Below are positions 16,572 through 61,790 of a stretch of DNA of 64,000 bases, piece by piece. Every line of letters starts with the position of its first letter. The first letter of the stretch is position 1. Both the position numbers and the translations under genes were made by a program. Origin of the DNA: Candidatus Nomurabacteria bacterium (GTDB lineage Bacteria; Patescibacteriota; Minisyncoccia; Phycocordibacterales; UBA918); contig JACKGF010000001.1 of the NCBI GenBank assembly GCA_020632095.1, positions 866,713 to 930,712 on the forward strand, written 5' to 3'. The notes below the pieces were generated by a model. That model saw only the letters and a list, made by a program, of their open reading frames with translations, was not told where the DNA came from and ran no database searches.

Positions 16572-16653
16572 TCTGCTTTGTCTGACTACGGATCGAAAGT
16601 AGTCACCGTACATTTGTACGTTTCCTATTTTCTCCCTTGTCATCCGCGCATAT
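16572..16653 (+). repeat. Intergenic element copy A (CTGCTTTGTC box – CGTAC-attt-GTACG hairpin – CCTTGTC..CGCGCATAT box)
   Basis: Member of a 6-copy family in r-protein spacers; see findings. Confidence 0.5.
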
Positions 16654-16908
16654 TATCTCAGTTAAGAAAAATTCGACCTCATTGTTTCAAAACAAAAAAA
16701 CGTGGAGACGCGAATCTCCGCAAATTACAAATAGTTTATATTCGCTACAGATTATATGACGCGATTCAAGCCGGTGGCTTCGGAATCAAATTATGCGAAG
16801 AATGAAAAAGTGACTTGTCATATTTCTCATTCTTGTTTATCAAGAAGTATAGCCGAGTAGAATAAAAGGAGACTCTTTTATATTCGCTCCGCTCATTAAA
16901 AAATAGCT

Positions 16909-17382
16909 ATGCGACGACCAATTAAAAAACGACCCATAGTATCTCCGGATGTTATGTACAGTTCGGTTGATGTCGAACGTCTCATCAACTACATCATGCT
17001 TCGTGGTCAAAAAGAGACTGCACGCAAGATTGTCTACGGTGCGTTTGAAATCATGAAGAATGCAAAGGATGGAGGAGGCGACCCGCTGGAAGTGTTCAAC
17101 ACAGCAGTGCGGAATGCTGGTCCTTTGATGGAAGTACGTTCTCGTCGAGTTGGTGGTGCAAACTACCAGGTTCCCCGAGAAGTACGACCAGAGCGCCGAA
17201 TGGCTTTGGCTCTAAGATGGATCATTAATGGAGCACGCAAGCAAAAAGGAGTACCAATGCACAAGGCTTTGGCTCAAGAATTGCTTTTGGCCGCTAAGGA
17301 AGAAGGAAACGCAGTGAAGAAGAAGGAAGATACCCACAAGATGGCTGAGGCTAACCGAGCCTTTGCCCACTTCGCTTGGTAA
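16909..17382 (+). CDS. rpsG: 30S ribosomal protein S7
   Basis: S7 family sequence (…[22 protein letters not shown]…); unusually it lies 355 bp downstream of rpsL. Confidence 0.95.
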
Positions 17383-17396
17383 TTCCACAATTGGCG

Positions 17397-17483
17397 TTTG
17401 GCTTCGTCGGTACGGCAAAAATTTAATTCGCTGGACTATACGTCCCACTCATTAAATTTTTACCTAGTCTCCTCGCCACACAT
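17397..17483 (+). repeat. Intergenic element copy F (upstream box – GGAC-tatac-GTCC hairpin – CCTAGTCTCCTCGCCACACAT box)
   Basis: Same tripartite layout and box sequences as copies A-E, but with a different hairpin stem. Confidence 0.4.
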
Positions 17484-17510
17484 TCAATTCTGAAATTCCC
17501 AATAATAAAA

Positions 17511-17568
17511 GGCCGGAGAATTTGTGATCTGTATTTATCGATACAGCTCACAAATTCTCCGGCCTTTT
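17511..17568. terminator. Long palindromic bidirectional terminator after rpsG
   Basis: GGCCGGAGAATTTGTGA…TCACAAATTCTCCGGCC forms a 17-bp stem with an A-run before and TTTTGC after. Confidence 0.6.
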
Positions 17569-17890
17569 GCTTGCGCCCAGTTTTTAAGAAGTGAAACGAC
17601 TATAAAAATGGATATACACCAGTGGTGCATTCGAAAATGAAATCAACAAGATTGAGGGACAGGTTTTTTAATACCTGTCCTACAAATGGAACGGTTATTC
17701 CCCTTGAAGTTGGCTGTTTTAACAACTATTAACAGCCCTTGTTAACAAAAGTTAATAGGTTGAGGGACAATCAATTCTAATGAATGTCCCTCAATTATTG
17801 ATATACTTCTATCAATAAAAAATAAAACTGCGCTGGAGCGCAGTTTAGGGTAGCTGGTGGTAATTTAAGATTTTGATTGAACAGTCCGGT

Positions 17891-18127
17891 TCAATTTTTT
17901 GGTTTTGGAGACTGGGGCGGAAATGCTTTTTTCCAGAGCCTTGCTACTAGGAATCTGGTATAGGTGAGAGTAAGTGCTAGTATGACTATAAACATAAAGT
18001 CACTAACCTCATTAGACTCTAAGAAATTATCAGATTCTCGTAGCGCCACACTGACTAAAATAAAGTTAAATATCACCAGAATGGCGTAAACACAAACAAT
18101 GAACGTAAAGGTTTCGTTATGGAACAT
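17891..18127 (-). CDS. Hypothetical small membrane protein (78 aa)
   Basis: Two hydrophobic helices, with the minus-strand terminator hairpin 17825-17846 directly downstream. Confidence 0.3.
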   Translation of the reverse strand: MFHNETFTFIVCVYAILVIFNFILVSVALRESDNFLESNEVSDFMFIVILALTLTYTRFLVARLWKKAFPPQSPKPKN

Positions 18128-18387
18128 ATTTCCTCCAAGGAGATGGCTTATTGAGCGCAGACATTACAGTATCATCAAATTTGATTACAAACTAGTTTTT
18201 ACAAATCTTTTACCACACCAACTTTATTGAATAAATATGTTGCCGTCTGTGGGGCAAATTCTCTCTTTTCGTATGGTATATGGGGCCTTTCCTCGTCAGG
18301 GGTCACTGTTTTAAAATTTTCCATATACTTTGATTATATATTGCACAAGCTTTAATTTTTCCGAAGGGTGGCCCTTCGATAATCTGA

Positions 18388-18738
18388 CTAATAATCCCTG
18401 CCGTTAAAATTAGTTACTTTTACTAAATCTGTGTCGAAATTTTCTAGGCAGTTTAGATTGATCGAAACCATGTAGTTTCCGTTGCCATCATGACCACGAG
18501 CAAAGGATTGGACACCACAGGTCTTGCAGAAGCGGTGGTCGATGTGTTTCTTGTTGAATTGGTAAGTGGTCAGGTTATCTTCGCCGGATAGGAGCTTGAA
18601 TTGGGCTTCGGGGACAAAGGCGAGCAAAAACCCTTTACGGCTACAATGACTACAATTACACTTCATTCCCTCAGTAAAATCTCCCTCAACTTCGTATTTA
18701 ACAGCGCCGCAATGGCAGCTTCCTTGGTATGTTTTCAT
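18388..18738 (-). CDS. GFA family (CENP-V/glutathione-dependent formaldehyde-activating-like) zinc protein
   Basis: Cys pattern CHCGAV…CNCSHC…CKTCG typical of Gfa-like domains. Confidence 0.7.
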   Translation of the reverse strand: MKTYQGSCHCGAVKYEVEGDFTEGMKCNCSHCSRKGFLLAFVPEAQFKLLSGEDNLTTYQFNKKHIDHRFCKTCGVQSFARGHDGNGNYMVSINLNCLENFDTDLVKVTNFNGRDY

Positions 18739-18790
18739 GATTGAATTTTATCATGATATAATGGATATTATTATCCTAAGGTAAATTTCT

Positions 18791-19081
18791 ATGGAGGGCG
18801 CACCAGCTACAAAAACAGAATCAAACGTAGAGAGCTTAGTAGCTTGGAGGGAACTAAAGTCAGAAGCACCGGCTCAAGCAGAGCGTCTGATGGCTCAGAT
18901 TGATGGTTTTGAAGAGATGGAACTGAAAGATAAAATCGCTGAACTTAAGCAATTATTATCTGAACTATCAGATAATAACGATAATCGTTTTTTGGTAGAG
19001 GAAATTGCAAAGCGGGTTTCAGTTATGGAGGAGCACAGTCGACATAGCAGTCGATTAGCAGAACTCCAATTAACCGCCTAA
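18791..19081 (+). CDS. Hypothetical acidic coiled-coil protein (96 aa)
   Basis: ORF with plausible spacing to its neighbours; no recognisable motif. Confidence 0.35.
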   Translation: MEGAPATKTESNVESLVAWRELKSEAPAQAERLMAQIDGFEEMELKDKIAELKQLLSELSDNNDNRFLVEEIAKRVSVMEEHSRHSSRLAELQLTA

Positions 19082-19100
19082 ATTATTCACTTCGTTCTTT

Positions 19101-20159: not shown

Positions 20160-20175
20160 AATCCGATAACACAAG

Positions 20176-20203
20176 AAAACCGGCGCCAATGGCGCCGGTT
20201 TTC
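20176..20203 (+). terminator. Rho-independent terminator
   Basis: AAAACCGGCGCC-aat-GGCGCCGGTTTT. Confidence 0.6.
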
Positions 20204-20221
20204 GTGTGCTAGAATTTTGGT

Positions 20222-21161: not shown

Positions 21162-21192
21162 AAAAGGCCGGCGCGAAGCGCCGGCCTTTTGC
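21162..21192. terminator. Bidirectional palindromic terminator
   Basis: GCAAAAGGCCGGCGCG-aa-GCGCCGGCCTTTTGC; a near-identical copy lies at 40604-40630. Confidence 0.55.
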
Positions 21193-21236
21193 ATTTCTTC
21201 AACAAAATAAGCTTGGCGTAGGGGGCAGCATAGTGT

Positions 21237-40603: not shown

Positions 40604-40630
40604 AAAGGCCGGCGCGGAGCGCCGGCCTTT
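40604..40630. terminator. Bidirectional palindromic terminator (copy of the 21162 terminator)
   Basis: AAAGGCCGGCGCG-ga-GCGCCGGCCTTT. Confidence 0.55.
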
Positions 40631-40873
40631 ATGATTCCTGATACAATATCAGGAATAACTATTTATTTTATGGACCCAAGAATACAACAACAATTAGATG
40701 AACAAGAAGTAAAGATTAATGAGATTTTAAAATCTGTTCGAAAGACTGAGAAGTATATGAAAATTACTTTCTGGGCAACTATTATAGTGGTAGTTTTGCC
40801 AGCCATATTATTGGCTTTTGTTATTCCTTCAGCTATAGATTCGTACACCACAACTCTGAATGGATTAATCTAA
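40631..40873 (+). CDS. Hypothetical small membrane protein (true start possibly at 40670)
   Basis: A C-terminal TM helix is present, but the ORF start overlaps the terminator. Confidence 0.25.
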   Translation: MIPDTISGITIYFMDPRIQQQLDEQEVKINEILKSVRKTEKYMKITFWATIIVVVLPAILLAFVIPSAIDSYTTTLNGLI

Positions 40874-48161: not shown

Positions 48162-49352
48162 ATGGCAAATGCATATGATCGCTCAAAGCCGCACATTAAC
48201 GTAGGAACTATTGGTCACGTTGACCACGGTAAAACTACTTTGACTGCCGCAATTCTAACTACGCTTAACGCGAAGGGAGGAGGATATTCAGCTAGCGTTA
48301 AAGACGTTGGTGAAATTGACAAGGCCCCAGAAGAAAAAGCTCGTGGAATCACTATTTCGCTTTCACACTCAGAGTACGAAACTCCATTACGACACTACGC
48401 ACACATTGATGCGCCAGGTCACGCTGACTACATTAAGAACATGATTACTGGTGCTGCCCAGATGGACGGTGCTGTACTTGTGGTGGCTGCAACAGATGGA
48501 GCAATGCCACAAACACGTGAACACGTTCTACTTGCAAAGCAGGTTGGTGTACCACAAATGATCGTATTCCTAAACAAGTGCGACATGGTGGATGATCCAG
48601 AAATGATTGAACTAGTTGAAGAAGAACTACGAGAAATGCTAACTCATGGTGGTTACGATGGTGCCAACGCCCCAATCATCAAGGGTTCAGGTCTAAAGGC
48701 TCTTGAAGGTGATGCTGAATATCAAGCAAAGGTACTTGAGCTAGTTGATGCGATGGATACATATTTCCCAACACCTGTTCGCGATATGGACAAGCCATTC
48801 CTTATGCCTGTAGAAGACATCTTCTCAATTGAAGGACGAGGAACAGTGGTAACTGGTCGTGTAGAACGAGGAGCTGTAAAGGTAGGTGAAGAAATCGAAA
48901 TCGTCGGTATCAAGCCAACTACTACTACAACTGTAACTGGAGTAGAGATGTTCAATAAGCAATTGGATCGAGCACAGGCTGGAGACAACGCTGGAATTCT
49001 ACTACGAGGTACTAAGAAGGAAGACGTGCACCGAGGTCAAGTTCTAGCTAAGAAGGGTTCTGTAACTCCTCATACTGAATTTGAAGCTGAAGTATACGTT
49101 CTATCAAAAGATGAAGGAGGTCGTCACACACCATTCTTCTCAGGTTACAAACCACAGTTCTATGTTCGAACTACTGACGTAACTGGAGACGTGACTCTAG
49201 CTGAAGGTACTGAAATGGTTATGCCTGGAGATACTGCAACTTTCAAGGTGAAGCTTGTAGCTCCAGTAGCTATGGAAGAACAAACAAACTTTGCGATTCG
49301 TGAAGGAGGTAAGACTGTAGGAGCGGGTGTTGTAACTAAGATTGTCGCGTAA
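48162..49352 (+). CDS. tuf: Elongation factor Tu
   Basis: [15 protein letters not shown] and NKCD motifs; 396 aa. Confidence 0.95.
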
Positions 49353-49372
49353 CAAATTTGTTAGCACTTCAT

Positions 49373-49453
49373 CTGCTTTGTCAGACTACGAAAATTTTTC
49401 CTCACCGTACGAAAAGTACGTCTCGAAAAAATTTCCTTGTCCTCCTCGCATAT
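49373..49453 (+). repeat. Intergenic element copy B (CTGCTTTGTCAGACTACG – CGTAC-gaaaa-GTACG – CCTTGTCCTCCTCGCATAT)
   Basis: Near-identical boxes to copy A. Confidence 0.5.
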
Positions 49454-49500
49454 AAAGCACTACCAAGCTTTGTTTAAAAGGATAGAGTAAGAAGTACAAC

Positions 49501-49863
49501 TTGAAATATATTATGGCTACAGACACTACATCAACAGGCGACAACGCAACAGGCGTGATAAACAAGCTGCGTATTCGAGTGCGTGCCTACGAGCACAAAA
49601 TTCTGGATGCGTCAGTGAAGCAGATCACAGATACTGCGATGCGTTTCGACGCAAAGGTGGTTGGACCGATTCCGCTTCCGACTGAAATTAAGAAATATAC
49701 CGTGAACCGTTCAACTTTCGTGCACAAGGACGCGCGAGAACAGTTTGAAATGCGAACTCACAAGCGAGTAATCGACATTCTCAATCCGAGTCCTAAAGTG
49801 GTAGAGGCTCTCACGAACCTCTCGCTCCCGTCAGGAGTCAACATCGATGTGAAGATGATGTAG
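49501..49863 (+). CDS. rpsJ: 30S ribosomal protein S10 (N-terminal extension; real start may be 49513)
   Basis: …[15 protein letters not shown]…[10 protein letters not shown]… matches S10. Confidence 0.9.
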
Positions 49864-49891
49864 ATCTTTTGCCAAAACGAGCGAATTACTT

Positions 49892-49966
49892 CGTTGCACT
49901 GGCAGAATGAAACATTCATCGTACATCAGTACGCTTCACGTTCCATTCTTGGTGCGTCTCGTACTT
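49892..49966 (+). repeat. Intergenic element copy D (box – CGTAC-atca-GTACG – CTTGGTGCGTCTCGTACT)
   Basis: Same tripartite layout, immediately after rpsJ. Confidence 0.45.
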
Positions 49967-50002
49967 CATCTCGTTTAGACAAAAGGTACACTGTGTGCCA
50001 AA

Positions 50003-50034
50003 ACACAAAACCCGCCGTAAGGCGGGTTTTGTGT
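50003..50034 (+). terminator. Rho-independent terminator after rpsJ
   Basis: ACACAAAACCCGCC-gtaa-GGCGGGTTTTGTGT forms a 14-bp stem including its U-tract. Confidence 0.65.
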
Positions 50035-50504
50035 TAGGTGGTTAGGTAGATATTTTGGGTGATTGGTATAAATTTAAATGGTTACCTAAAAGTTATCCAC
50101 AGTAGGATACTTGCGTGATTTTCGTGAGAAGGCATAATATTTAAACAGCAAGGAGGGCAGGTTCCATTAGGAACCTGCCCTCTCTCTGTTGTAAAGTCGC
50201 CAAGCTTTGAACAAAAGTAAGGTGACAAAATTGAGAAGCTGTTCTTTACAAATAGTTCTTTGCAACTTAACAAAATATAAAAATATGAGTGAATCAATTT
50301 CAACTCTAACAACCGAGGGAGTAACTCAAACAAGCAATAAGCAGTCTGTATTCCAGTCTGAAAACGCTTGGATGGTTCAATGTCTTAGTTTAGCAACAAT
50401 AGGTTTGTTAACCTATATACACATCGCACCGATGGTATACGCTGCTCACTAAAATAGCCTCTATTTGTTACAAAAGTCGTACACATGGTACGGCTTTTTT
50501 GCAT

Positions 50505-50695
50505 GAACAAATACCCAAAGGGTATATTGTGAATGTATATTGCTAGAAAATAATGACTGAAAGGAATATATTTTCTGTATGCTGTGCACAAGAATTTTGC
50601 TGGAAAATAATGAGCGAAGCGAATATATTTTCTGTATGCAGAGCTTTTTGCCTTAGGCAAATTCTGATTCAGTGAACAAATACCCAAAGGGTATA
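50505..50695. repeat. Nested direct-repeat block: 22-bp DR (GAACAAATACCCAAAGGGTATA) ×2 flanking a 42-bp tandem DR ×2
   Basis: DR1 at 50505-50526 and 50674-50695; DR2 at 50541-50582 and 50598-50639, each with a GAAAATA/TATTTTC stem. Confidence 0.5.
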
Positions 50696-50758
50696 CTTAA
50701 TCTACTCTAAATCGATCACAATATTGAGTTAACTTCTAGACATGTATCCTTGAAAATA

Positions 50759-51049
50759 TTATTTTCTATAAATTATAAATTGAGTAACCACCACCCACGA
50801 AATTATCGCACCAAGAGTCATAGGGATTATTAGGACGAAGTCTTTTTGTACAAAGCCATATAAGCTCCAGAAGGAATATGAAATGGCGAGTAAGGAAAAG
50901 TAGAATACTGAAAGTCCCTCAACACTTTTCCTTTGGTAATTTTTGTATGATTGAGAAGTAAGTCCTAGTCCCGTAACAGCTAGAGAAAGGATGATAGTGA
51001 AGATTTTTATAGTTAGCATGTGTTGTATAACATATTCAGTTGAATTCAA
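50759..51049 (-). CDS. Small 3-TM membrane protein, possibly PQ-loop/SemiSWEET-like
   Basis: 96 aa with three hydrophobic helices and a TSQ…KSVEGLS segment resembling PQ-loop motifs; this is weak. Confidence 0.35.
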   Translation of the reverse strand: MNSTEYVIQHMLTIKIFTIILSLAVTGLGLTSQSYKNYQRKSVEGLSVFYFSLLAISYSFWSLYGFVQKDFVLIIPMTLGAIISWVVVTQFIIYRK

Positions 51050-51114
51050 GTTACTTATTTAGTGTAATTTTCGTGCGACAAACCATTAAATTAAGTCATG
51101 GTAATATATTTTGA

Positions 51115-52254
51115 ATGACAAAACACAAAATTATATTATCTTTCATTTTAACTATTCTTGTTTTAACCATATTTTCTTCTAATAAGACTGAAAAACCGAA
51201 GAATGATAATTTGGTTGATAATGATGTTATTGCACAGGAAATGCAGGAGACCGACACTAATGGTCAGAGCAAGACTAATTTACCTGTTATTCCGTCAGGA
51301 AATCGAGTTTTAGGAATTTCAGTAACAGAAGGAGAGGTAGGTTTTGAAAAATCATATGTGAAAGCAAAAGAGACTGGAGCCACTTTAGTAACATTTGCAC
51401 TTGCTTGGGATGATATTGAAAAAAGTGAAGGTAAATTTGAAAATGTTTGGTTGAAAATAGCAAATTCATATTATGACAGAAAAGTTCCTATAAGTTTGGA
51501 GGTTAATCCAATTGATACAAATAATTTGCGCGTTCCGAAATATTTGAAAGGAAAAAATTTTTCGAGCGATGAATTAAAAAACTCGTATAAGAAAACTATT
51601 GAATATGTAGCGGGTGAGACATCTAATTTAAATATTAAATATTTTGTTATTGGGAATGAGGTGGGCGCATATCTGACAGACAAAACTATGACTTGGGATG
51701 AATATATTGATTTTCTACAAGCGGTTATACCGGTAGCAAAAAGTTTTTTCCCTAACGCTCAGGTCGGGGTTAAAGTTCAGTTTGTTAATGTCCTTTCTGG
51801 AGAAGTAAAAAAGCTAAATTCCTTAACTGACGCAGTGTTTGTTACTCATTATATGCTTGAAGGAGATTTTGGAAATTTGTCAGTTAGAGAGCCAGAAAAA
51901 GTATTTAAGGATTTTGGCTTATTAACAACTGCTTATGTCGATAAGAAGATTGCTTTTTTAGAGCTTGGTTACCCAAGTAGTGCAAAGTTGGGTAGTTCGG
52001 AGGAGTTACAGTCCGAATTTGTTAAGGAGGTGTTCATGGCTTGGGATTTTTATAAGGATTCTATCCAGACTATTAATTTTTTCAGTCTGCATGATTTTAC
52101 ATTTAGTGATGTTAAAAAATTTACATCTTACTACGGATTCAAAAACAGTCATTTTGCTGAGTTTTTGGGTTCTTTAGGGTTTCTGTATGCTGACGGTAAA
52201 CCAAAAGTTGCATTCGAAACTTTGAAAAAAGAAGCTGAGGCAAGAGGTTTTTAG
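51115..52254 (+). CDS. Secreted clan GH-A (TIM-barrel) glycoside hydrolase
   Basis: Signal peptide, VIGNEVG (acid/base NEP motif) and FLELGYPSS (candidate nucleophile Glu). Confidence 0.55.
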   Translation: MTKHKIILSFILTILVLTIFSSNKTEKPKNDNLVDNDVIAQEMQETDTNGQSKTNLPVIPSGNRVLGISVTEGEVGFEKSYVKAKETGATLVTFALAWDDIEKSEGKFENVWLKIANSYYDRKVPISLEVNPIDTNNLRVPKYLKGKNFSSDELKNSYKKTIEYVAGETSNLNIKYFVIGNEVGAYLTDKTMTWDEYIDFLQAVIPVAKSFFPNAQVGVKVQFVNVLSGEVKKLNSLTDAVFVTHYMLEGDFGNLSVREPEKVFKDFGLLTTAYVDKKIAFLELGYPSSAKLGSSEELQSEFVKEVFMAWDFYKDSIQTINFFSLHDFTFSDVKKFTSYYGFKNSHFAEFLGSLGFLYADGKPKVAFETLKKEAEARGF

Positions 52255-52354
52255 GGCACAAACCTTGCGGTTTATGGAAAAATCAGTATACTATCGCCAG
52301 CTTTAAAAGACCTATGTACGGATGTGAGTTTACTCACGTACGGACCAATGGGCA

Positions 52355-52416
52355 CAAACCGCGCGGATTTTCTGTATGCGAGCTTGTGCTCGCGCTTAGA
52401 AAATTCGCGCGGTTTG
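52355..52416 (+). promoter_or_regulatory. Structured leader upstream of rplC (candidate L4-type autoregulatory or attenuator structure)
   Basis: 18-bp inverted repeat CAAACCGCGCGGATTTTC / GAAAATTCGCGCGGTTTG enclosing the GCGAGC-ttgt-GCTCGC hairpin. Confidence 0.35.
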
Positions 52417-52480
52417 TTGTATGGGTCTAGATTGCATTCGCAATTTGCAAAGCTAAGTTATTAGATTAGGTTCATACGAA

Positions 52481-53104
52481 ATGAAATTTATCGTTGGAAC
52501 AAAAACCGGCATGACACAGGTCTTCAGTAAGGAAGGAGTATGTCTTGCGGCAACTGTTCTCAAAGTTCAACCTGCGACTGTGTCACAGGTGAAGACGACT
52601 GAGATTGATGGCTACAATGCCGTACAGCTTGCCTCCGGTTCACAAAAGGAACATCGAGTCAGTAAGGCGACCAAGGGTCACTTCGGCGGCGCGATTTCTC
52701 TCGCTCGAGAGTTTCGTCCTCGCACTGGTGAAGAGGCTCAAATCGCTGGAGTGGAAAAAGGTAACAAACTAGATGTTACGACTTTCGCACCGGGTGATGA
52801 CATTTCAGTCTCAGCCATCTCGAAAGGTAAAGGATTCCAAGGAGTAGTGAAGCGACACGGTTTTGCCGGAGGTCGCCGATCGCACGGTCAGAAACACTCT
52901 GAACGTGAACCAGGATCAATTGGAGCAACTGGTCTTGCTCGTGTTATCAAAGGCACACGCATGGCTGGTCGAATGGGTAGCGATAAGGTTACCATTAAAG
53001 GTTTGAAGGTGTTGCAGGTAAACGTTGATGAAAATATCATCGTGGTATCTGGAGCCGTCCCCGGTCGAAAAGGAACATTAGTCGAGATTTATAGCGCCCA
53101 ATAA
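52481..53104 (+). CDS. rplC: 50S ribosomal protein L3
   Basis: L3 signature region (…GKGFQGVVKRHGF…GGRMGSDKVT…). Confidence 0.95.
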   Translation: MKFIVGTKTGMTQVFSKEGVCLAATVLKVQPATVSQVKTTEIDGYNAVQLASGSQKEHRVSKATKGHFGGAISLAREFRPRTGEEAQIAGVEKGNKLDVTTFAPGDDISVSAISKGKGFQGVVKRHGFAGGRRSHGQKHSEREPGSIGATGLARVIKGTRMAGRMGSDKVTIKGLKVLQVNVDENIIVVSGAVPGRKGTLVEIYSAQ

Positions 53105-54180: not shown

Positions 54181-55059
54181 ATGAAAAAATACAAACCAAC
54201 ATCTGCTGGACGACGAGATGGCTCAGTCGTCGAGTATAAGAAAAAATTGACCAGTACTCAAAGCGAACCACTTAAGTCTTTGACTAAAGGAAAGAAAAGT
54301 ACTGGTGGACGAAATAGTGACGGACGAATTACTGCCCTCAACCGTGGTGGTGGAAACAAAAGAACCTATCGTCTAATTGATTTCAAGTACAATAAAAAAG
54401 ATGTTCCTGCTAAAGTGGAGTCGGTTGAATACGACCCAAACCGTACAGGTTTCATTGCTTTGATTTGTTACTTAGATGGAGAACGACGATATATTCTAGC
54501 TCCCGAACAATTGAAGCAAGGGGATGAAATTATTGTTTCTGAAAAAGCGAAAGTAAAGCCAGGGAACCGACTTCCACTTAACAAGATTCCTGTTGGAACA
54601 ACTGTATATAATGTTGAAATCAATCCAGGAGCAGGATCTAGATTAGGCCGCTCAGCTGGTTGCTCGATTGAAGTGGTAGCGCAAGATGCTCAACATACTT
54701 CACTCAAGCTTCCCTCAACTGAAGTGCGAAAGGTACAAAATACCGCTTGGGCTTCTGTTGGTTCAGTATCAAATGATGAACATCGTTTGGTAAGTATCGG
54801 AAAGGCTGGACGCGCTAGACACATGGGTCTGCGACCAAAAGTACGAGGTACAGCTAAAAACGCTGTCGATCACCCACATGGAGGAGGTGAAGGACGTTCT
54901 CCACGAGGACACCGACGACAACGAACCAAGCAAGGACGACCAACCGGAAAGGGTCAAAAGACCAGGTCACCAAAGAAGTACTCAAACAAGATGATTGTCT
55001 TGCGTCGAAAGCTTGGAAAAGTTATGGGCGGACAACGACAGAGTCTTCCGAAGAAATAA
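54181..55059 (+). CDS. rplB: 50S ribosomal protein L2
   Basis: …DHPHGGGEGRSP…GKGQKTRS… is diagnostic for L2. Confidence 0.95.
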   Translation: MKKYKPTSAGRRDGSVVEYKKKLTSTQSEPLKSLTKGKKSTGGRNSDGRITALNRGGGNKRTYRLIDFKYNKKDVPAKVESVEYDPNRTGFIALICYLDGERRYILAPEQLKQGDEIIVSEKAKVKPGNRLPLNKIPVGTTVYNVEINPGAGSRLGRSAGCSIEVVAQDAQHTSLKLPSTEVRKVQNTAWASVGSVSNDEHRLVSIGKAGRARHMGLRPKVRGTAKNAVDHPHGGGEGRSPRGHRRQRTKQGRPTGKGQKTRSPKKYSNKMIVLRRKLGKVMGGQRQSLPKK

Positions 55060-55083
55060 ATCTAACAAGTGCATTAAAGCAAC

Positions 55084-55116
55084 AAAAAACCACTGGCCTT
55101 GGCCAGTGGTTTTTGT
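55084..55116 (+). terminator. Rho-independent terminator directly after rplB
   Basis: AAAAAACCACTGGCC-tt-GGCCAGTGGTTTTTG. Confidence 0.65.
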
Positions 55117-55205
55117 TGTATAAGATACAGGATACTTTCTTAGAAGGGGTGCTTTTAAAATTTGATATAGTGATACAATAGACCCAATTATTAATATCAA
55201 GTTTT

Positions 55206-56663
55206 ATGTTTATGAAATCCTTTGGTTTTACTCAATCGACACATTATTTTATTGGCCTAGTTATTTTGTCTACGTTATTGGCGATACCGTCGGTTTCAGC
55301 AGCTCAAACCGCAAACGAGTGTTCATTTTCTCGGACGCTTGAAGATGGAGTAGATGGTGAGGATGTTCGCTGTCTGCAAAAGTACCTAAACGATAATGGC
55401 TTTGTGATTGCTGAGAGTGGGCCGGGTGCGGTTGGTCACGAAACAAACCTTTTTCGAACTCTTACTAAAGAAGCAGTAGTAAAGTGGCAGAAAGCCAAGA
55501 ATGTAAATCCAGCTAGTGGTGTGTTTGGCCCACAATCACAAGCGGCTTATTTGTTGGATTTAATTGCAAAGATTGAAGGTAAAAAAGCTGATACAGTGGC
55601 TGTTGCTACCGCTCCGACCCCAGCTCCACAAGTAGCCGGTATCTCTACTAGCGCTATAGACGAAAATAAAAACAAGGGTGAATCTATTCTTAAAGATGCA
55701 TTTAAAATGATGCGTGACGCAGAAAAGCAAGTTGATGACCTTGATGATGAGAGTAAGCTAGCTAAGCTAAATAAAAATTTAACTGATGCAAGAATAGATT
55801 TGTATGACGCTCTAGAAAGTTTTTTCGACGAGGATTACAAAAATGCTTATGCTAGTGGTCAAGATGCACTTGATGCTGCAAGTAAGGTGTTTGAAAAGGC
55901 TGGCGGGGAGACATATGAGAGTAAGGCGGATGATGTCCTTAGTGATGTGACTGATTTACTTGAGGATGTACAAGGTTTGTATTCAGATGCTAAAGACAAC
56001 AAAGCTGATGTAGGTGACTCTAAGAAAATGATCAGTGAGGCCGAAGATTTGTTAAATGATGCCCAAGATGAATTTGATAAACGTGGCTACAAGCAGGCTA
56101 TTAGTGATGCTCTAGATGCTGAAGAAATTCTCAATGACGCCAAAGACGAAATTGATTTTGTTGGCGAAAAAGATGTTGAAGGTTATATAGAAGAGGTCCG
56201 CAATGAACTTGATGACGCTGAAGATGAAATCAATGACGCGGATGATGATGGCGAAGATGTGGATGACGCCTGGGATTTGTTTAAAGATGCTGAAAAGAAA
56301 TTAAACAAGGCTGATCTGGCTATAGATGATGAAGAATATCTAGATGCACAGAATTACGCCGAAGACGCTCAGGATCTAATAGATGAAGCTTTGGATTCAA
56401 TTAGTGGTTCAAGTAGTGGTGATGAGAAGAAGGCAAAAAAAGCTGTTGCAAATGCCTGGGATGATTATGATGATGCAAAAAATGATATTAGTGATGCCGA
56501 AGACGATGGTGACAATATGGACGATGCTTGGGATTTGCTCAAGGATGCTAAGAAAAAACTAAACAAAGCTGACGATTCATACGATGATGAAGAATATCAA
56601 GATGCTCTTGATTACGTTGATGATGCAGAGGACTTGATTGATGAGGCGTTGGATGAGTTGTAG
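55206..56663 (+). CDS. Secreted peptidoglycan-binding-domain protein with a long acidic (Asp/Glu-rich) tandem-repeat region
   Basis: Signal peptide, a PG_binding_1-like segment (…DGEDVRCLQKYLNDNGF…), then two ~65-aa near-identical acidic repeats (…DDAWDLxKDAxKKLNKAD…DDEEYxDAxxYxxDAxDLIDEALD…). Confidence 0.6.
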   Translation: MFMKSFGFTQSTHYFIGLVILSTLLAIPSVSAAQTANECSFSRTLEDGVDGEDVRCLQKYLNDNGFVIAESGPGAVGHETNLFRTLTKEAVVKWQKAKNVNPASGVFGPQSQAAYLLDLIAKIEGKKADTVAVATAPTPAPQVAGISTSAIDENKNKGESILKDAFKMMRDAEKQVDDLDDESKLAKLNKNLTDARIDLYDALESFFDEDYKNAYASGQDALDAASKVFEKAGGETYESKADDVLSDVTDLLEDVQGLYSDAKDNKADVGDSKKMISEAEDLLNDAQDEFDKRGYKQAISDALDAEEILNDAKDEIDFVGEKDVEGYIEEVRNELDDAEDEINDADDDGEDVDDAWDLFKDAEKKLNKADLAIDDEEYLDAQNYAEDAQDLIDEALDSISGSSSGDEKKAKKAVANAWDDYDDAKNDISDAEDDGDNMDDAWDLLKDAKKKLNKADDSYDDEEYQDALDYVDDAEDLIDEALDEL

Positions 56664-56678
56664 GAAGGGAAGGTAACC

Positions 56679-56716
56679 AAAAAGTCGGTAGTTCGCAAAG
56701 CGAACGGCCGACTTTT
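56679..56716. terminator. Bidirectional terminator
   Basis: AGTCGGTAGTTCGC-aaa-GCGAACGGCCGACT followed by TTTTT. Confidence 0.55.
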
Positions 56717-56718
56717 TG

Positions 56719-57036
56719 CTACACGCCCGGCAAACGCTCCCTTTCCTTAAACACAAATTCCCGGAGTGATTTTGCTTTCTTTAACTCATTAATGATTATT
56801 GTTGGGTTTTCTATGTGAACAGCTACTTTCTGGACGCTCTGTCCAGTGATGATGAGTTCGCAGCCAGCTGGGGTGTAGACAATGGTTACAAACCGATGGC
56901 CGTTTTTATTACGGCTAGTGGTTTTGATTTCGCCGGGGGCAATCATTTTCACCCCAGCAATTTTCTCCACCACCTGCACCACTAAATCAGCTGTTTCGGT
57001 GAGGGTGGTGTGTTCATGACCGCGGGGTTTTGGCAT
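56719..57036 (-). CDS. Hypothetical protein (105 aa)
   Basis: ORF with plausible spacing; no motif recognised. Confidence 0.4.
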   Translation of the reverse strand: MPKPRGHEHTTLTETADLVVQVVEKIAGVKMIAPGEIKTTSRNKNGHRFVTIVYTPAGCELIITGQSVQKVAVHIENPTIIINELKKAKSLREFVFKERERLPGV

Positions 57037-57124
57037 ACTGATAGGGTAGCATATTTGTTGCTAGTGTATGTAAAATAATAAAGGCAACCCGAAGGTTGCC
57101 TTGTGGCCGGCTTTTAACTGTGGT

Positions 57125-57427
57125 TCATTTCGTCTTGGCCGGTATTCTGAAGTTGGCAATCGTCATACCGGTTAGGTTTTGTCGATAAGGTAAATTGAGT
57201 TTGAATCTGCTCGCTATATTCTTGAGGAGACTCTCAATATCGAACGCTGCCAGTTCTGAATCCGGCGGAAAGCCGATTTCTACTTCAACGCCAGCAGTCT
57301 TATTTGTCGTGTATAGCTGGTAATTCTGAAACCTCCCTTTTCTCCGCAAGTTGAACCATCTTGTAATAAGGTCGGCTAGAGAAGGCCTGACTTTTTTCGG
57401 TCGCTGCTCCGTATTTTCTCGCGTCAC
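57125..57427 (-). CDS. Hypothetical basic protein (100 aa)
   Basis: ORF only. Confidence 0.35.
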   Translation of the reverse strand: MTRENTEQRPKKVRPSLADLITRWFNLRRKGRFQNYQLYTTNKTAGVEVEIGFPPDSELAAFDIESLLKNIASRFKLNLPYRQNLTGMTIANFRIPAKTK

Positions 57428-57590
57428 TTTTCGTCCTTTTTTATATGGTTAACTAAAGAACATAACACCCCTAAACCATTTCAAGGGTCTGCGTAATATA
57501 CAACAAATATTCTTTGCAATCCACAATAATTTTTTGGATAAGACTGAGTAATGGATGTGATGTGGGTGTTTTTGAGGTGTACGATATACA

Positions 57591-57613
57591 AAAAAGCGAC
57601 CCTTAGGGTCGCT
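57591..57613 (-). terminator. Terminator for the minus-strand gene ending at 57646
   Basis: On the minus strand, GCGACCC-taa-GGGTCGC is followed by TTTTTT. Confidence 0.5.
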
Positions 57614-57645
57614 CTCTAAGTCCTTTTCGGACTAGGTGTTGGTAA

Positions 57646-57927
57646 TTACTGCTGGTGACGCAATAAGCAGACAGCAGCTTTAGGTGTTATGGTCATGTAC
57701 TCGATCGTGGTACCATTTACTTTACTGCAGAGTACCCTGATCATTCCTGTTTCTTCTTCGTTAAGTTGCTCTCCTTCTTGATGGGTGAAGCGGATGAGTG
57801 TTGCTCCGTGTCTTCCCATAGTTTTAAACTGTAAGTAAGGATAATCCCTAACTAACTTTCTCTCAATCTGATCAAAAGTTTTTGGTTCAACAAATCTTGT
57901 TTTCACAAGCACGTTTCCTTCAGACAT
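57646..57927 (-). CDS. Hypothetical protein (93 aa)
   Basis: ORF with a downstream terminator; no motif recognised. Confidence 0.4.
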   Translation of the reverse strand: MSEGNVLVKTRFVEPKTFDQIERKLVRDYPYLQFKTMGRHGATLIRFTHQEGEQLNEEETGMIRVLCSKVNGTTIEYMTITPKAAVCLLRHQQ

Positions 57928-58573
57928 GGATCATTCTCCAGTGGTTTATTTTAAGAACAGCAAAGCTTTGTTCGAGTTTTATATAATCACTATTTTTTAA
58001 GAGTGTAAAGGGTTGTATTGGTAGTAAAGGAGCTACAAAGCGGACGCCTTTAGAAAGGGTAGCAAAACCTCGCCTTTTTGCCGGAGAACCCAATTTTATC
58101 GTTGACTTTTCGGGGAATTTCAAGTATTCTCATCCCTGTTCCAACCTCAGTGAGGAGAAGTGTCACCTCACAAGATGAAGAAGAAAAAGGTTAAAATCTG
58201 TTGGGAGTCCCTGTAAGGATAGCCGTTAACTGTCTTTACAAGAGATTCCCTTCAACCGCACCCAAAGTGCGGGTTTATAGGTAGTTGAAGAACTACAAAA
58301 TTATAAATTAATTAGGGGTTGTGGTGAGTATTTATAAAGGATGTTCCAAGAATAAGGTAGATAGCACTGTAATAAGCGTTTGATCACCTTTTCCAGGAAT
58401 CGGCGGCGGGCTAAAGCCGCCGATTCGGAACTAAATTCTGAGCAGCCCGCTACATGCTATTTCTCCCCTAGGAAGGGGTCGAAATATCATAAGCGTCTGC
58501 ATAAGCAAAATATAGTCGTAGCTTCGCTACTCCTGATTTTGCTTAATACTCATCACGCTCCTTAAAATTAAAA

Positions 58574-58903
58574 ATGTCACGATCACTCTATAAAGGACCA
58601 TACATAGACGAAAAACTCCTCAAAAAGATCGCCGGAAAAAAACCCGGAGAGGGTGGTGTCATCAAGACTTGGGCTCGCGGCTCAGTCATCTCACCAGAAA
58701 TGGTCGGATTCAAATTTGGTGTACATAACGGACGAGATCATATCGAAGTTTTAGTCGCCGAAGAAATGGTAGGACACAAGTTTGGAGAATTTTCACCAAC
58801 TAAAAAATTCCATCGACACGGAGGTAAGATGCAGAAAGAGCTTGAGCAGAAGAAGAAGGCCGCAGAAATTGCAGCAGCTAAGGCAGCTAAGACCACTAAA
58901 TAA
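58574..58903 (+). CDS. rpsS: 30S ribosomal protein S19 (Lys/Ala-rich C-terminal extension)
   Basis: …[18 protein letters not shown]…[25 protein letters not shown]… matches S19. Confidence 0.9.
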
Positions 58904-58908
58904 TCAGT

Positions 58909-59235
58909 ATGAAAGCATTTCTAAAAAACTATCGTCAGTCACCGCGTAAGGTTCGCCTTATCGCTGGCTTGGTACGAGGAAAAAATACTACTGATGCTAT
59001 CGCTACTCTACAATTTGTTGACAAGCGAGCAGCTGACCCCTTTGCTAAAGTGATTAAGTCTGCTGTAGCCAATGCTAAGGTGCAAGGAAAAGATGTTGAA
59101 AAGCTTTTTGTTAAAACTGTTTCAGTTGACAAGGGGACCATCATCAAGCGATCAATGCCACGGGCTCGTGGATCAGCATCGCGAATTAATAAGCGTAATA
59201 GCCATATCTCAGTCGAGCTCGGCGAGAAGAAATAA
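58909..59235 (+). CDS. rplV: 50S ribosomal protein L22
   Basis: L22 pattern (…YRQSPRKVRLIAGLVRGK…); position in the S10-operon order. Confidence 0.9.
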   Translation: MKAFLKNYRQSPRKVRLIAGLVRGKNTTDAIATLQFVDKRAADPFAKVIKSAVANAKVQGKDVEKLFVKTVSVDKGTIIKRSMPRARGSASRINKRNSHISVELGEKK

Positions 59236-59241
59236 AAAGAT

Positions 59242-59952: not shown

Positions 59953-59958
59953 ACATAT

Positions 59959-60393
59959 ATGTTATTTCCAAAGAAAGTAAAACACCGCAAGTGGCAAGTT
60001 GGCCGCATGAGTGAAGAAAAGCGTAGTCGTCCAGACACCAGAGGTATTACCGTTTCATATGGTTCATATGGCCTTAAGGCGACAACTGATTCACGTGTTA
60101 AGTCAAACCAGATTGAAGCAGCTCGTCGAGTTATTTCACGAACTATGGGTAAGGTTGGTAAGACATGGATTCGTATTTTCCCAGACCGGCCAGTTACTCA
60201 TAAAGCGGCTGAAGTACCGATGGGTAAGGGTAAAGGAGATCCTGACCACTTCGTATTTGAAGTGCGACCAGGACGAATTATATTTGAGGTTGACGGAGTG
60301 TCAGAAGACATAGCTCGCGAAGCCTTCAGAAAGGCTTGCGCTAAGCTACCATTACAAGGAAAATTCGTGCGTCGTGAAGACACACGAGTGTAA
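59959..60393 (+). CDS. rplP: 50S ribosomal protein L16
   Basis: …MLFPKKVKHRK…RMGKGKGDPDHFV… matches L16. Confidence 0.95.
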   Translation: MLFPKKVKHRKWQVGRMSEEKRSRPDTRGITVSYGSYGLKATTDSRVKSNQIEAARRVISRTMGKVGKTWIRIFPDRPVTHKAAEVPMGKGKGDPDHFVFEVRPGRIIFEVDGVSEDIAREAFRKACAKLPLQGKFVRREDTRV

Positions 60394-60405
60394 GTACTGA
60401 TTGTT

Positions 60406-60606
60406 ATGACAAACATGAAAGATATTCAAAAAAAGTCAGACACTGAATTGATCGAAATGGTCAAGACAGATCGCGACACAGTACGTCAGGAACGTTTCAA
60501 GGATAAATTTAGTCGCAAGGCTAGTATTATCCGAACAGCAAAAACTGGCATCGCTCGTGCTCTGACTGAGCTCAACGTTCGTCGACGTAATCAAGAAACT
60601 AAATAG
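60406..60606 (+). CDS. rpmC: 50S ribosomal protein L29
   Basis: Small helical protein (…KSDTELIEMVK…ELNVRRRN…) in the conserved position between rplP and rpsQ. Confidence 0.8.
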   Translation: MTNMKDIQKKSDTELIEMVKTDRDTVRQERFKDKFSRKASIIRTAKTGIARALTELNVRRRNQETK

Positions 60607-60609
60607 CGT

Positions 60610-60867
60610 ATGAGTACTGAAGAAACAACCAATAACAATGGTCGCGTGCTCCGCGGAAAAGTAGTGGCTTCTAAAATGACTGATACCATTACTGTCGCAG
60701 TTGAGCGATACGTGAAGCACCCAAAATACAAGAAGTTCCTACGACGCACGAAGAAGTTCCTAGTGCATGATGCAGGAAACAAAGCGAAGGTAGGTGAAAC
60801 GGTCGAAATTAAAGAAGTCCGCCCAATCTCAAAGCGAAAAAGCTTCGAGCTTATAACCACAAAGTAA
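60610..60867 (+). CDS. rpsQ: 30S ribosomal protein S17
   Basis: …RVLRGKVVASKMTDTITVAVER…HPKYKK… matches S17. Confidence 0.9.
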   Translation: MSTEETTNNNGRVLRGKVVASKMTDTITVAVERYVKHPKYKKFLRRTKKFLVHDAGNKAKVGETVEIKEVRPISKRKSFELITTK

Positions 60868-60868
60868 T

Positions 60869-61240
60869 ATGATTCAGCCACAAACAATCGTAAAGATTAC
60901 TGACAACTCCGGAGCAAAGTCAGGCCGAGTCTTCAAGGTACTTGGTGGTTCAAAAAAGCGTTACGCTGAAATCGGAGAAATGGTGGTACTGGCTGTCCAG
61001 ACTGCAGAACCACGCAAGCAAGTGAAGAAGAAGGATGTCGTGTACGGAATTATTGTCCGACAACGCAAGCCGTTCAGGCGGAAGGATGGTTCTTATGTAA
61101 GCTTTGACGACAACGCAGTGGTGTTAGTCGACAAAGAAAAGAAGCAACCAAAAGCCAACCGTGTGTTTGGTCCAATTCCTCGCGAACTAGGTGAGGCTGG
61201 TTATCAGAAGATTGTATCTCTAGCCCCAGAGGTGGTTTAA
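60869..61240 (+). CDS. rplN: 50S ribosomal protein L14
   Basis: MIQPQTIVKITDNSGAK… is a canonical L14 start. Confidence 0.95.
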   Translation: MIQPQTIVKITDNSGAKSGRVFKVLGGSKKRYAEIGEMVVLAVQTAEPRKQVKKKDVVYGIIVRQRKPFRRKDGSYVSFDDNAVVLVDKEKKQPKANRVFGPIPRELGEAGYQKIVSLAPEVV

Positions 61241-61259
61241 AAGTTTAAAATTCGTGTAT

Positions 61260-61337
61260 TGCTTGGTTGTGACGAAAATTTTATTTCATCGTACAGGTGT
61301 ACGACTCAATAAAATTTCTTTGCACGCCTCGCACTAC
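61260..61337 (+). repeat. Intergenic element copy C (TGCTTGGTTGTGACG – CGTAC-aggt-GTACG – CTTTGCACGCCTCGCACTA)
   Basis: Between rplN and rplX, where the spacer is normally only a few bp. Confidence 0.5.
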
Positions 61338-61387
61338 ATCCAATTTTAAGATTTTTAAACTCAGCAAGATTCATAAAAAATAACAAT

Positions 61388-61699
61388 ATGAAAATCAAAA
61401 AAGGAGACACAGTAAAAGTGATTGCTGGAAAGGACAAAGGAAAAACTGGTGAAGTCTCGATTGCGCTTAAAGACACCAATCAAGTGGTGGTCGAAGGAGT
61501 AAACGAAGTGAAACGACACCAGAAGAACACCCGTTCTCGTTCACAAGGTCAAATCATTGAAAAGAGTATGCCAATTCACGCTTCAAACGTTGCACTCATG
61601 GAAGGTAAGAAAACTGTTCGAGTGGGATATATCTTCGAAGGTGAAGGTGATAAGCGAAAGAAAGTGCGAGTTGCTCGACCATCGGGCAAAAAAATCTAG
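61388..61699 (+). CDS. rplX: 50S ribosomal protein L24
   Basis: MKIKKGDTVKVIAGKDKGKTGEV… matches L24 (KOW motif). Confidence 0.9.
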   Translation: MKIKKGDTVKVIAGKDKGKTGEVSIALKDTNQVVVEGVNEVKRHQKNTRSRSQGQIIEKSMPIHASNVALMEGKKTVRVGYIFEGEGDKRKKVRVARPSGKKI

Positions 61700-61724
61700 C
61701 CGAAATGAAGAACTTGGCGAATTT

Positions 61725-61790
61725 CGTTGTCGCTACGCTAGTGTGGTCGGTCGCCGTATAAAAATACGTCTTCCTCACACACAAGCTAGG
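61725..61790 (+). repeat. Intergenic element copy E (CGTTGTCGCTACG – CGTAT-aaaa-ATACG – CTTCCTCACACACAAG)
   Basis: Variant hairpin stem (CGTAT/ATACG) with the same layout; between rplX and rplE. Confidence 0.4.

Follow-up and report, generated by a model that had tools for sequence, protein, structure and literature searches.

Enterobacterial repetitive intergenic consensus (ERIC) elements, also named intergenic repeat units (IRUs), are 127-base-pair (bp) imperfect palindromes of enterobacteria. They are transcribed intergenic elements that lie within operons or at their ends, are co-transcribed, and are conserved across genera (PMC2229807). The reported effect of an ERIC on the stability of the upstream transcript depends on its orientation and on the melting of the hairpin by ribosomes; in Yersinia, for example, an RNase E site becomes exposed when ribosomes open the hairpin, in an orientation-dependent manner (PMC2229807). 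Repetitive extragenic palindromes (REPs) and bacterial interspersed mosaic elements (BIMEs) have been implicated in the protection of upstream mRNA, and at 15 nucleotides (nt) or less from a stop codon they affect the translation of the upstream gene; in E. coli, REPs this close to the stop codon stall ribosomes and lower expression (PMC12306157). REPs are 20-40 nt long, and one of their ends carries a GTAG or CGTC tag (PMC3733652). Here, we describe a family of palindromic elements that occurs six times in ribosomal protein (r-protein) gene spacers of a 64,000-nt stretch of a Candidatus Nomurabacteria genome (contig JACKGF010000001.1, positions 866,713 to 930,712); the whole stretch is referred to as the window. 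We rate the element as a transcribed intergenic palindromic repeat of the ERIC/REP kind that is distributed genome-wide, and not as an r-protein regulator.

The present family resembles ERIC in its size and in its long, rod-like hairpin, but the two share no sequence similarity. ERIC elements have 7-bp terminal inverted repeats, TA ends, and a target-site duplication, none of which is found in the present family. The latter, in turn, is more strictly tied to the stop codon and the sense strand, and its conservation from class to phylum is accompanied by heavy compensatory change. Like REPs and BIMEs, the present elements are extragenic palindromes behind stop codons, sometimes in tandem. REPs, in contrast, occur in both orientations and are linked to REP-associated tyrosine transposases (RAYTs), whereas the present elements are 105-135 nt long, have no terminal tag, and lie mostly in the sense orientation. 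Looped hairpins between or after cistrons are also known as individual processing or stabilizing signals that are not terminators, such as the intercistronic RNase III sites of phage T7 and the 3' inverted repeats of chloroplasts. Those sites are individual; the present elements form a dispersed homologous family with invariant loops. The unusual traits of the family are the depth of its conservation (class and beyond), its strict placement at stop codons, and its invariant internal loops. The family is apparently undescribed. The element was not found described in the published literature on RNA motifs, palindromes, and r-protein-operon repeats of Patescibacteria/Parcubacteria, and strings such as CTCACCGTAC led to unrelated primers only. 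A search of the whole window against Rfam 15 at the gathering threshold gave 0 matches, and in E-value mode (positions 49300-50100 and seven element-bearing loci, E ≤ 10 or E ≤ 1) no leader or other family matched any element. The sequence-only reading that had first pointed to these spacers was therefore right that the element is not a known r-protein leader.

The window genes identified by Pfam are rpsL, rpsG, fusA, tuf, rpsJ, rplC-D-W-B, and rpsS to rplE. Two covariance models were used: R1 was built from the six window copies, and R2, with a 34-pair structure, from the copies of relatives only. R2 finds exactly six matches in the window, of 70-89 bits (E 1e-15 to 1e-20) and all on the + strand, and nothing else above 18 bits, the next-best match scoring 17 (Table 1). 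Six homologous + strand elements, as first proposed, are thus borne out by a model that was built without them. Their cores start 4-10 nt 3' of the stop codons of rpsL, rpsG, tuf, rpsJ, rplN, and rplX, and the copies are pairwise 52-65% identical. The motif CGTAC-N4-5-GTACG occurs 5 times in the window, against 0.03 expected. A further 5.4 kb of the same genome beyond the window, which carries a TerC/TerD cluster, holds no additional copies, and a scan for tRNA and tmRNA found none.

Table 1. Copies of the element, terminators behind copies B and D, and one non-member hairpin in the window. Extent is the full hairpin for all copies but C; MFE, minimum free energy of the fold; ORF, open reading frame.
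Feature	Extent	R2 core match	Strand	Score	Remarks
Copy A, after rpsL	16544-16679	16560-16665	+	R1 96.8 bits; R2 83.0 bits	rpsL stop UAA (16551-16553) within the basal helix; MFE -40.1 kcal/mol, z -5.2
Copy B, after rpsG	17376-17502	17386-17492	+	R2 75.0 bits	rpsG stop UAA (17380-17382) within the basal helix; apical stem GGAC/GUCC; MFE -29.4 kcal/mol, z -3.5
Copy C, between tuf and rpsJ	49359-49465	49359-49465	+	R2 81.5 bits	single-sequence MFE folds the inner part only (49384-49441); outer helices weak
Copy D, after rpsJ	49864-49987	49873-49978	+	R2 88.1 bits	base begins 1 nt past rpsJ stop UAG (49861-49863); MFE -39.4 kcal/mol
Copy E, between rplN and rplX	61233-61364	61246-61348	+	R2 88.7 bits	rplN stop UAA (61238-61240) inside the basal helix; MFE -43.1 kcal/mol, z -5.9
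Copy F, between rplX and rplE	61702-61821	61709-61814	+	R2 69.6 bits	base begins 3 nt past rplX stop UAG, with two unpaired nt between; apical stem CGUAU/AUACG; MFE -40.8 kcal/mol, z -4.4
Intrinsic terminator behind copy B	17507-17570		+		long GC-rich hairpin AGGCCGGAGAATTTGTGA...TCACAAATTCTCCGGCCTTTTG, then UUUU
Intrinsic terminator behind copy D	50007-50036		+		AAAACCCGCCGTAAGGCGGGTTTTGTG, 20 nt past the hairpin base of D
Non-member: terminator of the 81-aa ORF 50207-50452	50474-50502		+		GTCGTACACATGGTACGGCTTTTTT; fifth CGTAC-N5-GTACG match

As modeled, the element is one long nested hairpin made of helices P0-P4, with about 34 core pairs. RNAalifold and single-sequence folds agree on a single nested hairpin P1-P4, to which the flanks add P0 and a basal helix. 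P1 consists of UGC/GCA and flanking pairs. P2 differs by copy, and is GAC/GUC in A and C, CAC/GUG in D, and GUG/CAC in E. P3 is an AU-rich helix of 9-11 bp with a different sequence in each copy, and P4 is the apical helix. The family core is 105 nt long, or up to about 135 nt with the basal helix, and would form a rod of five or six stacked helices. In the window, the full hairpins span 120-136 nt, with folding energies of -29 to -43 kcal/mol and z of -2.9 to -5.9; the stop codon lies within a helix in A, B, and E, and directly at the base in D and F. The length of about 80 nt given at first was therefore too short. In the layout of a 5' box, a hairpin, and a 3' box, the apical stem alone had been recognized, and the two boxes are the two strands of helices P1 and P2 plus an internal loop. 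Copies A and B, described as near-identical over about 60 nt, are 58% identical, where shuffled sequences average 51% and reach 59% at most. The variant apical stems, CGTAT/ATACG in copy F and GGAC/GTCC in copy B, are as had been claimed.

The helices are preserved by covariation. In the copies of relatives, 77.7% of the cells are paired, against 53% after shuffling and 32-46% with slid partners, and double changes occur in 33 of the 34 pairs. An independent metagenome set gives nearly the same picture, with 81.2% of cells paired (53% shuffled, 34-44% slid) and double changes in 31 of 34 pairs. Over the two sets, the covariation score is 0.53-0.56, compared with 0.14-0.16 for shuffled and 0.09-0.17 for slid pairings. 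Compensatory substitutions are massive. Of 177 copies, 50% have a basal helix, defined as at least 6 consecutive pairs directly outside the model, compared with 4% of shuffled flank pairs. In about half of the copies overall, this helix, 6-12 bp long, surrounds or adjoins the stop codon upstream. The final codons of the preceding gene often take part in the pairing, and synonymous differences between species are then matched by the partner strand (for example, in the rplW copies of loci L019 and L014).

In contrast to the paired positions, the unpaired positions are nearly invariant, with the consensus YUnC-uuYGUYR ... UCRc-[apical hairpin]-cUc ... YncCunG. The invariant internal loops are small and pyrimidine-rich on both strands. 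Pyrimidine-pyrimidine mismatches outnumber purine-purine mismatches 2.4-5.8 fold, therefore the two strands of the element are not equivalent.

Several copies are deletion variants (L006 6268-6337, L093, L086, L105, L095). One lacks P3-P4 and several lack P3, and the hairpin still closes in each case, which suggests modular loss through slippage within the palindrome.

How far the family extends was followed in two samples. The first comprises 80 rplB-centered loci of relatives (L001-L080, 1.16 Mb). The best rplB relatives, at 68-84% amino-acid identity, are without exception Patescibacteria metagenome-assembled genomes (MAGs) labelled Candidatus Nomurabacteria, Paceibacterota, or Kaiserbacteria, which places the window in a Paceibacteria (Parcubacteria) genome. 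R1 gives 54 matches in these loci, and R2 finds 54-65 copies there. The second is a metagenome scan unbiased by gene, in which an apical-region pattern, TCACCGTACN{4,6}GTACGNCTCR, was found in at least 120 stretches; among the matches listed (120 metagenome loci), 78 + 49 scored as true elements. Relatives and metagenome contigs together, as counted from the matches listed, hold at least about 190 copies. In viral contigs, three pattern matches were all due to chance (covariance model score ≤ 17 bits). Among the matches listed, the GC content of the element-bearing metagenome contigs ranges from 0.36 to 0.74. Among the proteins encoded on the high-GC contigs are multi-GAF hybrid kinases, SARP-type regulators, and an ATP-grasp enzyme whose best named relatives, at 86% identity, belong to Solirubrobacteraceae and 'Binatia' MAGs; these contigs are therefore not from the candidate phyla radiation (CPR). 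The family is thus spread through Paceibacteria/Patescibacteria and also occurs on some high-GC, non-CPR soil-bacterial contigs.

The copies are non-randomly placed: conserved genes carry them in the sense orientation, at the stop codon. A co-oriented ORF of at least 60 aa ends just upstream in 133 of 175 full-length copies. In these 133, the gap between the stop codon and the start of the model has a median of 7 nt (10th-90th percentile -3 to 14). With the basal helix included, 76 of the 133 have the stop codon within the hairpin or no more than 3 nt from its base, and another 39 have it 4-10 nt away. The stop codons are TAA (76), TAG (45), and TGA (12). In spacers between convergent genes, the element abuts the stop codon of the gene on its own strand in all 13 cases examined. 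Some forward copies ahead of rplC or rpsS have no upstream gene (L027, L031, L059, L035, L079); they are most simply explained by foreign genes that would have been inserted later between a gene and its element.

The choice of genes bears on the idea that the element is an autoregulatory binding site of one r-protein, acting as a leader or as an intercistronic operator. In the rplB loci and the window taken together, the element follows 37 of 739 translation genes and 4 of 742 other ORFs of at least 100 aa (Fisher p = 4e-8), and the four others encode L6 (twice), SecY, and the SSB of an S6 operon. All 41 gene-attached copies in the relatives' r-protein loci, like the six in the window, stand behind translation-operon genes, whereas the accessory genes inserted into the fragmented r-protein operons are never followed by an element; in the window, none is found behind PilC, RecJ, ComEC, the ABC-F protein, NAPRTase, NAD synthase, or other non-translation ORFs. 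Copy F, moreover, occupies the rplX/rplE junction, where S8 acts in E. coli. The place of these 41 and six copies, and of F in particular, speaks for an operator, but the gene-unbiased scan gives a different view. Among the matches listed, the upstream gene encodes an r-protein in only 1 of 46 annotated cases (rpsG), and the same element stands, co-oriented, behind dozens of non-ribosomal genes. They include genes for RpoD, NusB-NUDIX, NusG, LepA, AlaRS (alaS), GyrB, both subunits of ribonucleotide reductase (nrdA/B), thioredoxin reductase (trxB), DEAD-box helicases, RecO, SecY, PilC, LemA, an acyl-CoA dehydrogenase, GroEL (with a tandem pair of elements behind it), a beta-CASP RNase (RNase J-like), and exonuclease III. 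With the terminators that stand behind B and D, the empty spacers of the closest relatives, and the lack of an Rfam leader match as well, an r-protein operator can hardly be upheld. Confinement to r-protein spacers, as proposed, holds in the window and survives as an enrichment in the relatives' r-protein loci, but is not true of the family. The translation-gene placement in this genome may instead mean that the family prefers genes that are old and conserved, and presumably highly expressed, with no r-protein-specific role; as part of the explanation favored below, this has perhaps an equal chance of being right or wrong.

In one of the metagenome contigs, which is CPR-like, the upstream gene is a GyrB fragment (L092 1-1059) with an intein splicing domain, and the element follows its stop codon.

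Stable hairpins at gene ends could also be factor-dependent or partial terminators or attenuators. The constant position at the 3' end of a gene, the high stability of the window hairpins, and the 13 convergent cases are in line with this reading. However, a U-tract at the hairpin base is found in 4 of 172 copies, fewer than the 15 of 172 in a control window, and canonical terminators are already present downstream. They start 4-20 nt beyond the hairpin bases of B and D, and the weak Rfam matches in 49300-50100 all fall on the terminator at 50007-50036 and none on C or D. The after-rplB copy of L078 likewise has a terminator about 35 nt downstream, and a similar GC-rich hairpin stands behind the after-secY copy. 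Many copies, furthermore, are found between the closely packed genes of an operon (tuf-rpsJ, rplW-rplB, rplN-rplX-rplE), and termination there would deprive essential downstream genes of transcription. Such a terminator role is therefore improbable. Given the separate terminators and the rarity of U-tracts, the elements appear to be internal 3' untranslated region or intercistronic structures. The terminators also mean that B and D cannot be leaders of a downstream gene; the ORFs next after the terminator of B are on the minus strand.

Other hairpins in the window are not members of the family. The hairpin at 50476-50500, at first taken to be the same hairpin, does have a CGTAC/GTACG stem in common with it, but it scores at most 10 bits, is followed by TTTTTT, and is an intrinsic terminator (Table 1). 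The hairpins upstream of rplC, where recurring GTACG motifs had been noted, are non-members as well (R2 12.5 bits); there are two of them, GTACGGATGTGAG...CTCACGTACGG at 52318-52347 and the long CAAACCGCGCGGATTTTCT...AGAAAATTCGCGCGGTTTG at 52352-52417. Weak covariance model matches at 55080-55118 and 52355-52416 were rejected as a terminator and an unrelated hairpin, respectively. The 244 nt that separate copy A from rpsG include, at 16690-16720, a short GC hairpin, GGAGACGCGAATCTCC, with an A-run before it; it reads as a terminator on the minus strand only, where no gene is nearby. The distant positions 21163-21211 and 40604-40652 have in common a terminator-like hairpin, AAAGGCCGGCGCG(A/G)AGCGCCGGCCTTT, plus flank, at 80% identity.

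In gene maps of the 80 relatives, a given spacer is short (5-30 nt) when it lacks the element and long (150-250 nt) when it contains one; the tuf-rpsJ spacer, for example, measures 20-30 nt without and about 170 nt with it. Copies at the same position in different species resemble each other (tuf>rpsJ 70-82%, rplW>rplB 71-82%, after rpsJ 77-78%) more than the copies within one genome (52-65%), therefore inheritance is mainly vertical, with frequent loss. Copy B is closest to the after-rpsG copy of L079 (67% identity), copy C has tuf>rpsJ orthologs in at least 17 relatives (the best in L008, 70%), and copy D has orthologs after rpsJ in L006 and L022 (77-78%). The sequence of copy E is identical in two independent assemblies. 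The rplN/rplX spacer has no element in any of the 80 relatives. The nearest copies to F lie reversed, on the minus strand, in the same spacer in L003 and L007 and before rpsS in L021 and L036, at 67-75% identity. Two copies at different sites of L078 are 88% identical over the inner ~90 nt but have different outer helices, and tandem doublets 20-26 nt apart occur in L201 (2373-2480 and 2501-2609, directly after groES-groEL) and L197 (641-747 and 774-880). Thus, copies are occasionally copied to new sites or inverted.

The reading that we favor, to which we give about an even chance, is that of a co-transcribed hairpin at the cistron boundary with an ERIC/REP-like effect on mRNA stability or processing. 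The element would be transcribed together with the upstream gene and act in cis on the mRNA. The hairpin may block or direct ribonucleases, and so set the stability of the upstream cistron relative to what comes after it. With the stop codon at the hairpin base, every terminating ribosome would melt the hairpin, and translation of the upstream gene would be coupled to the fate of the transcript. A ribosome at a stop codon covers about 12-15 nt downstream; therefore, the base would be opened in at least 85% of gene-attached copies. The invariant loops might be a docking or cleavage site for a conserved protein or nuclease, which is hypothetical. An RNA processing or stability site was among the roles suggested at the outset, and it stands as the best functional proposal, drawn by analogy with ERIC and REP.

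Several points weigh against this reading. About 10-20% of the copies are reversed relative to the neighboring genes and keep the same conserved loops; in the r-protein loci, this is true of 7 of 65 copies, which are found 12-30 nt upstream of rpsS, rplE, or rplC. In well-paired columns, G.U pairs (42-52) are not commoner than A.C mismatches (37-40), which is odd for helices selected as RNA and fits upkeep of the palindrome at the DNA level, for example by arm-templated correction. The closest relatives, L001 and L005, carry no element in the same spacers, therefore the element is dispensable. Lastly, the transcription and processing of the elements and any effect on expression are all inferred, and so is the partner of the loops.

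The parity of G.U and A.C and the filled and empty sites among close relatives also count in favor of a selfish or neutral DNA palindrome, a reading that we consider a serious but less likely rival. The element would then be a non-autonomous mobile or duplicative element, whose folded single strand is recognized by a putative recombinase or transposase; its arms would be kept by quasi-palindrome template switching, the site behind the stop codon would be a tolerated place of insertion, and any effect on RNA would be incidental. The L078 pair, the F-type copies in both orientations and in different spacers, and the tandem doublets agree with this reading. So do the strongly lineage-dependent copy number (L001 and L005 have no copy, whereas L079 has eight within 20 kb), the spread of the family across phyla to Solirubrobacteraceae-like contigs, and the perfect basal helices of 8-12 bp that copy the 3' end of the host gene, as templated extension of a palindrome would do. 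Correia elements (NEMIS) of Neisseria and other MITEs (miniature inverted-repeat transposable elements), such as RUP, BOX, and RPE, are the nearest models for such DNA. They are 100-155 bp long and co-transcribed, and their long hairpins are proposed as substrates of RNase III. The present family shares with MITEs the filled and empty sites, the lack of coding capacity, the length of about 100-200 bp, and the long stem-loop, the polymorphism of sites being common to Correia-type elements and to it. Correia elements, in contrast, are genus-specific, end in conserved inverted repeats of 24 bp, and show a TA duplication; the present family has none of these traits. Direct repeats of at least 2 nt flank 8.5% of copies against 8.2% of controls, with no excess of TA. 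Conserved termini are lacking too: each copy has its own P0 and basal-helix sequence, with covariation between the strands, and the end consensus is 'n' throughout. A half-element nhmmer search of about 1.9 Mb of loci found no split copy that encloses an ORF and no autonomous version. Also unexpected for selfish DNA are the age of the copies within a genome (52-65% identity), the persistence of positional orthologs across families, and the orientation rule in 13 of 13 convergent spacers. Template correction alone would erase the conserved mismatched loops, and the tenfold preference for conserved over accessory genes points to selection or coupling at the transcript level.

By these comparisons, the family fails the defining tests of MITEs, REPs, and, as described below, attC sites. 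A REP- or MITE-like dispersed repeat nevertheless came closest of the three roles first suggested, in that many copies exist elsewhere, although their placement is not random. The sequence-only reading had named, as evidence against itself, hundreds of randomly distributed copies found by a covariance model, as for a simple REP; this is largely what came out, yet the copies sit at stop codons on the sense strand.

attC sites are imperfect palindromes of 57-141 nt directly behind ORFs, in which structure is more conserved than sequence, unpaired bases matter, and one strand is functional. A recombination site or insertion hot spot of this kind, marking cassettes, could explain the fragmentation of the r-protein operons. 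The present elements share the attC-like length and the position right behind an ORF (here with the median gap of 7 nt), a trait that is not specific to attC, and they too lie mostly in one orientation and conserve unpaired bases. There are also array-like runs, with three copies in 3.2 kb of L179 and the order rplN-E-rplX-F-rplE in the window, and copies at the edges of the rpsJ|rplC and rplB|rpsS breaks. However, 0 of 176 copies have both the R'' and the R' core (RYYYAAC...GTTRRRY), whichever strand is read; the genes alongside are core housekeeping genes rather than cassettes; no integrase was found among the neighboring genes scanned; and all relatives show the operon breaks, with the element or without it. 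An attC-like role is thus very improbable.

Of the ~60 relatives whose sequence is long enough, essentially all have the S10 operon split at the same two places, rpsJ|rplC and rplB|rpsS, with inserts of 0.2-8.8 kb of unrelated genes (in the window, 49863-52481 and 55059-58574). Fragmentation is therefore an old trait of the clade that is independent of the hairpins. The spc operon of this genome is broken too: no rpsN or rpsH follows rplE (window positions 62475-64000 and L204 1319-8273), where a 171-aa protein without a Pfam match, a PGP-phosphatase-like protein, and a TerC/TerD/vWA-TerF-like cluster are found instead.

A last alternative is an orphan stem-loop guide RNA of the TIGR-Tas type, whose units, described for CPR TasR clades, combine a palindromic stem and a loop hairpin with two variable segments. 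CPR bacteria are a main host of stem-loop TIGR arrays, in which the guide RNAs (tigRNAs) form a tandem array by a tas (Nop-domain) gene and have two unpaired 8-12-nt spacers with box C/D flanks (PMC12045711; bioRxiv 10.64898/2026.09.09.750476). The likeness in layout is superficial. The variable segments of the present element pair with each other (P2/P3), unlike the unpaired guides of tigRNAs; its copies are single and dispersed after housekeeping genes instead of forming tandem arrays beside a tas gene; and no Nop-domain protein is among the ORFs scanned. The chance of such a guide RNA is close to negligible.

Four further candidates were set aside. The 5' UGCUUUGU resembles the boxA of Nus factors, but is one strand of P1 plus an internal loop, and genes that are not Nus-related precede the element. 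An anti-Shine-Dalgarno mimic (CCUCC in the 3' strand) is not supported by the family consensus, which reads GCCUYG instead. The partial likeness of P4 to 16S helix 45 was treated as a coincidence, the loop being variable here; the window itself contains no rRNA. Cores of self-cleaving ribozymes (hammerhead, twister, pistol, hatchet, hairpin) were not seen by eye and had no Rfam match.

Beyond the favored reading of a cistron-boundary hairpin that affects mRNA stability or processing, the element may be a 'stop-codon clamp', a new class of cis-acting mRNA structure in Patescibacteria and some Actinomycetota-like soil bacteria, whose loops would be read by a widespread RNA-binding protein or ribonuclease. 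We think this extension unlikely. If it were true, the mRNA stability or processing of core genes (those of translation, transcription, and replication, and the chaperonin) would be tied to translation by the melting that each terminating ribosome would have to perform, which would amount to a global post-transcriptional layer in genomes with very few classical regulators. CPR bacteria have tiny genomes and few known regulators, and their RNA level is almost unstudied. A functional element would probably be among the most abundant cis-elements of CPR genomes and would offer a handle on mRNA processing and stabilization, and its conserved loops would predict a specific partner protein. If, on the other hand, the element is selfish DNA, it is an unusual repeat, without the terminal repeats and target duplications of MITEs and yet maintained at orthologous sites in deeply diverged lineages. 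In genome annotation, the covariance model accounts for many 'long' spacers in tight CPR operons, and cautions against taking such spacers as gene-specific leaders.

The inserts in the S10 operon have some features of their own. Directly after rplB, the window encodes a 485-aa acidic protein (55206-56663) with internal 258-nt repeats and the domains DUF4398 and PG_binding_1, and many relatives have a homolog at this position. Behind the small ORF 50207-50452, the spacer contains a tandem 51-nt direct repeat (50537-50587 and 50594-50644), with 84% identity between the two units. In L036, a two-gene minus-strand module between rplB and rpsS (12569-13208) has the look of a VapC/AbrB-like toxin-antitoxin pair, as judged from the translations by eye, and a reversed element lies between this module and rpsS.

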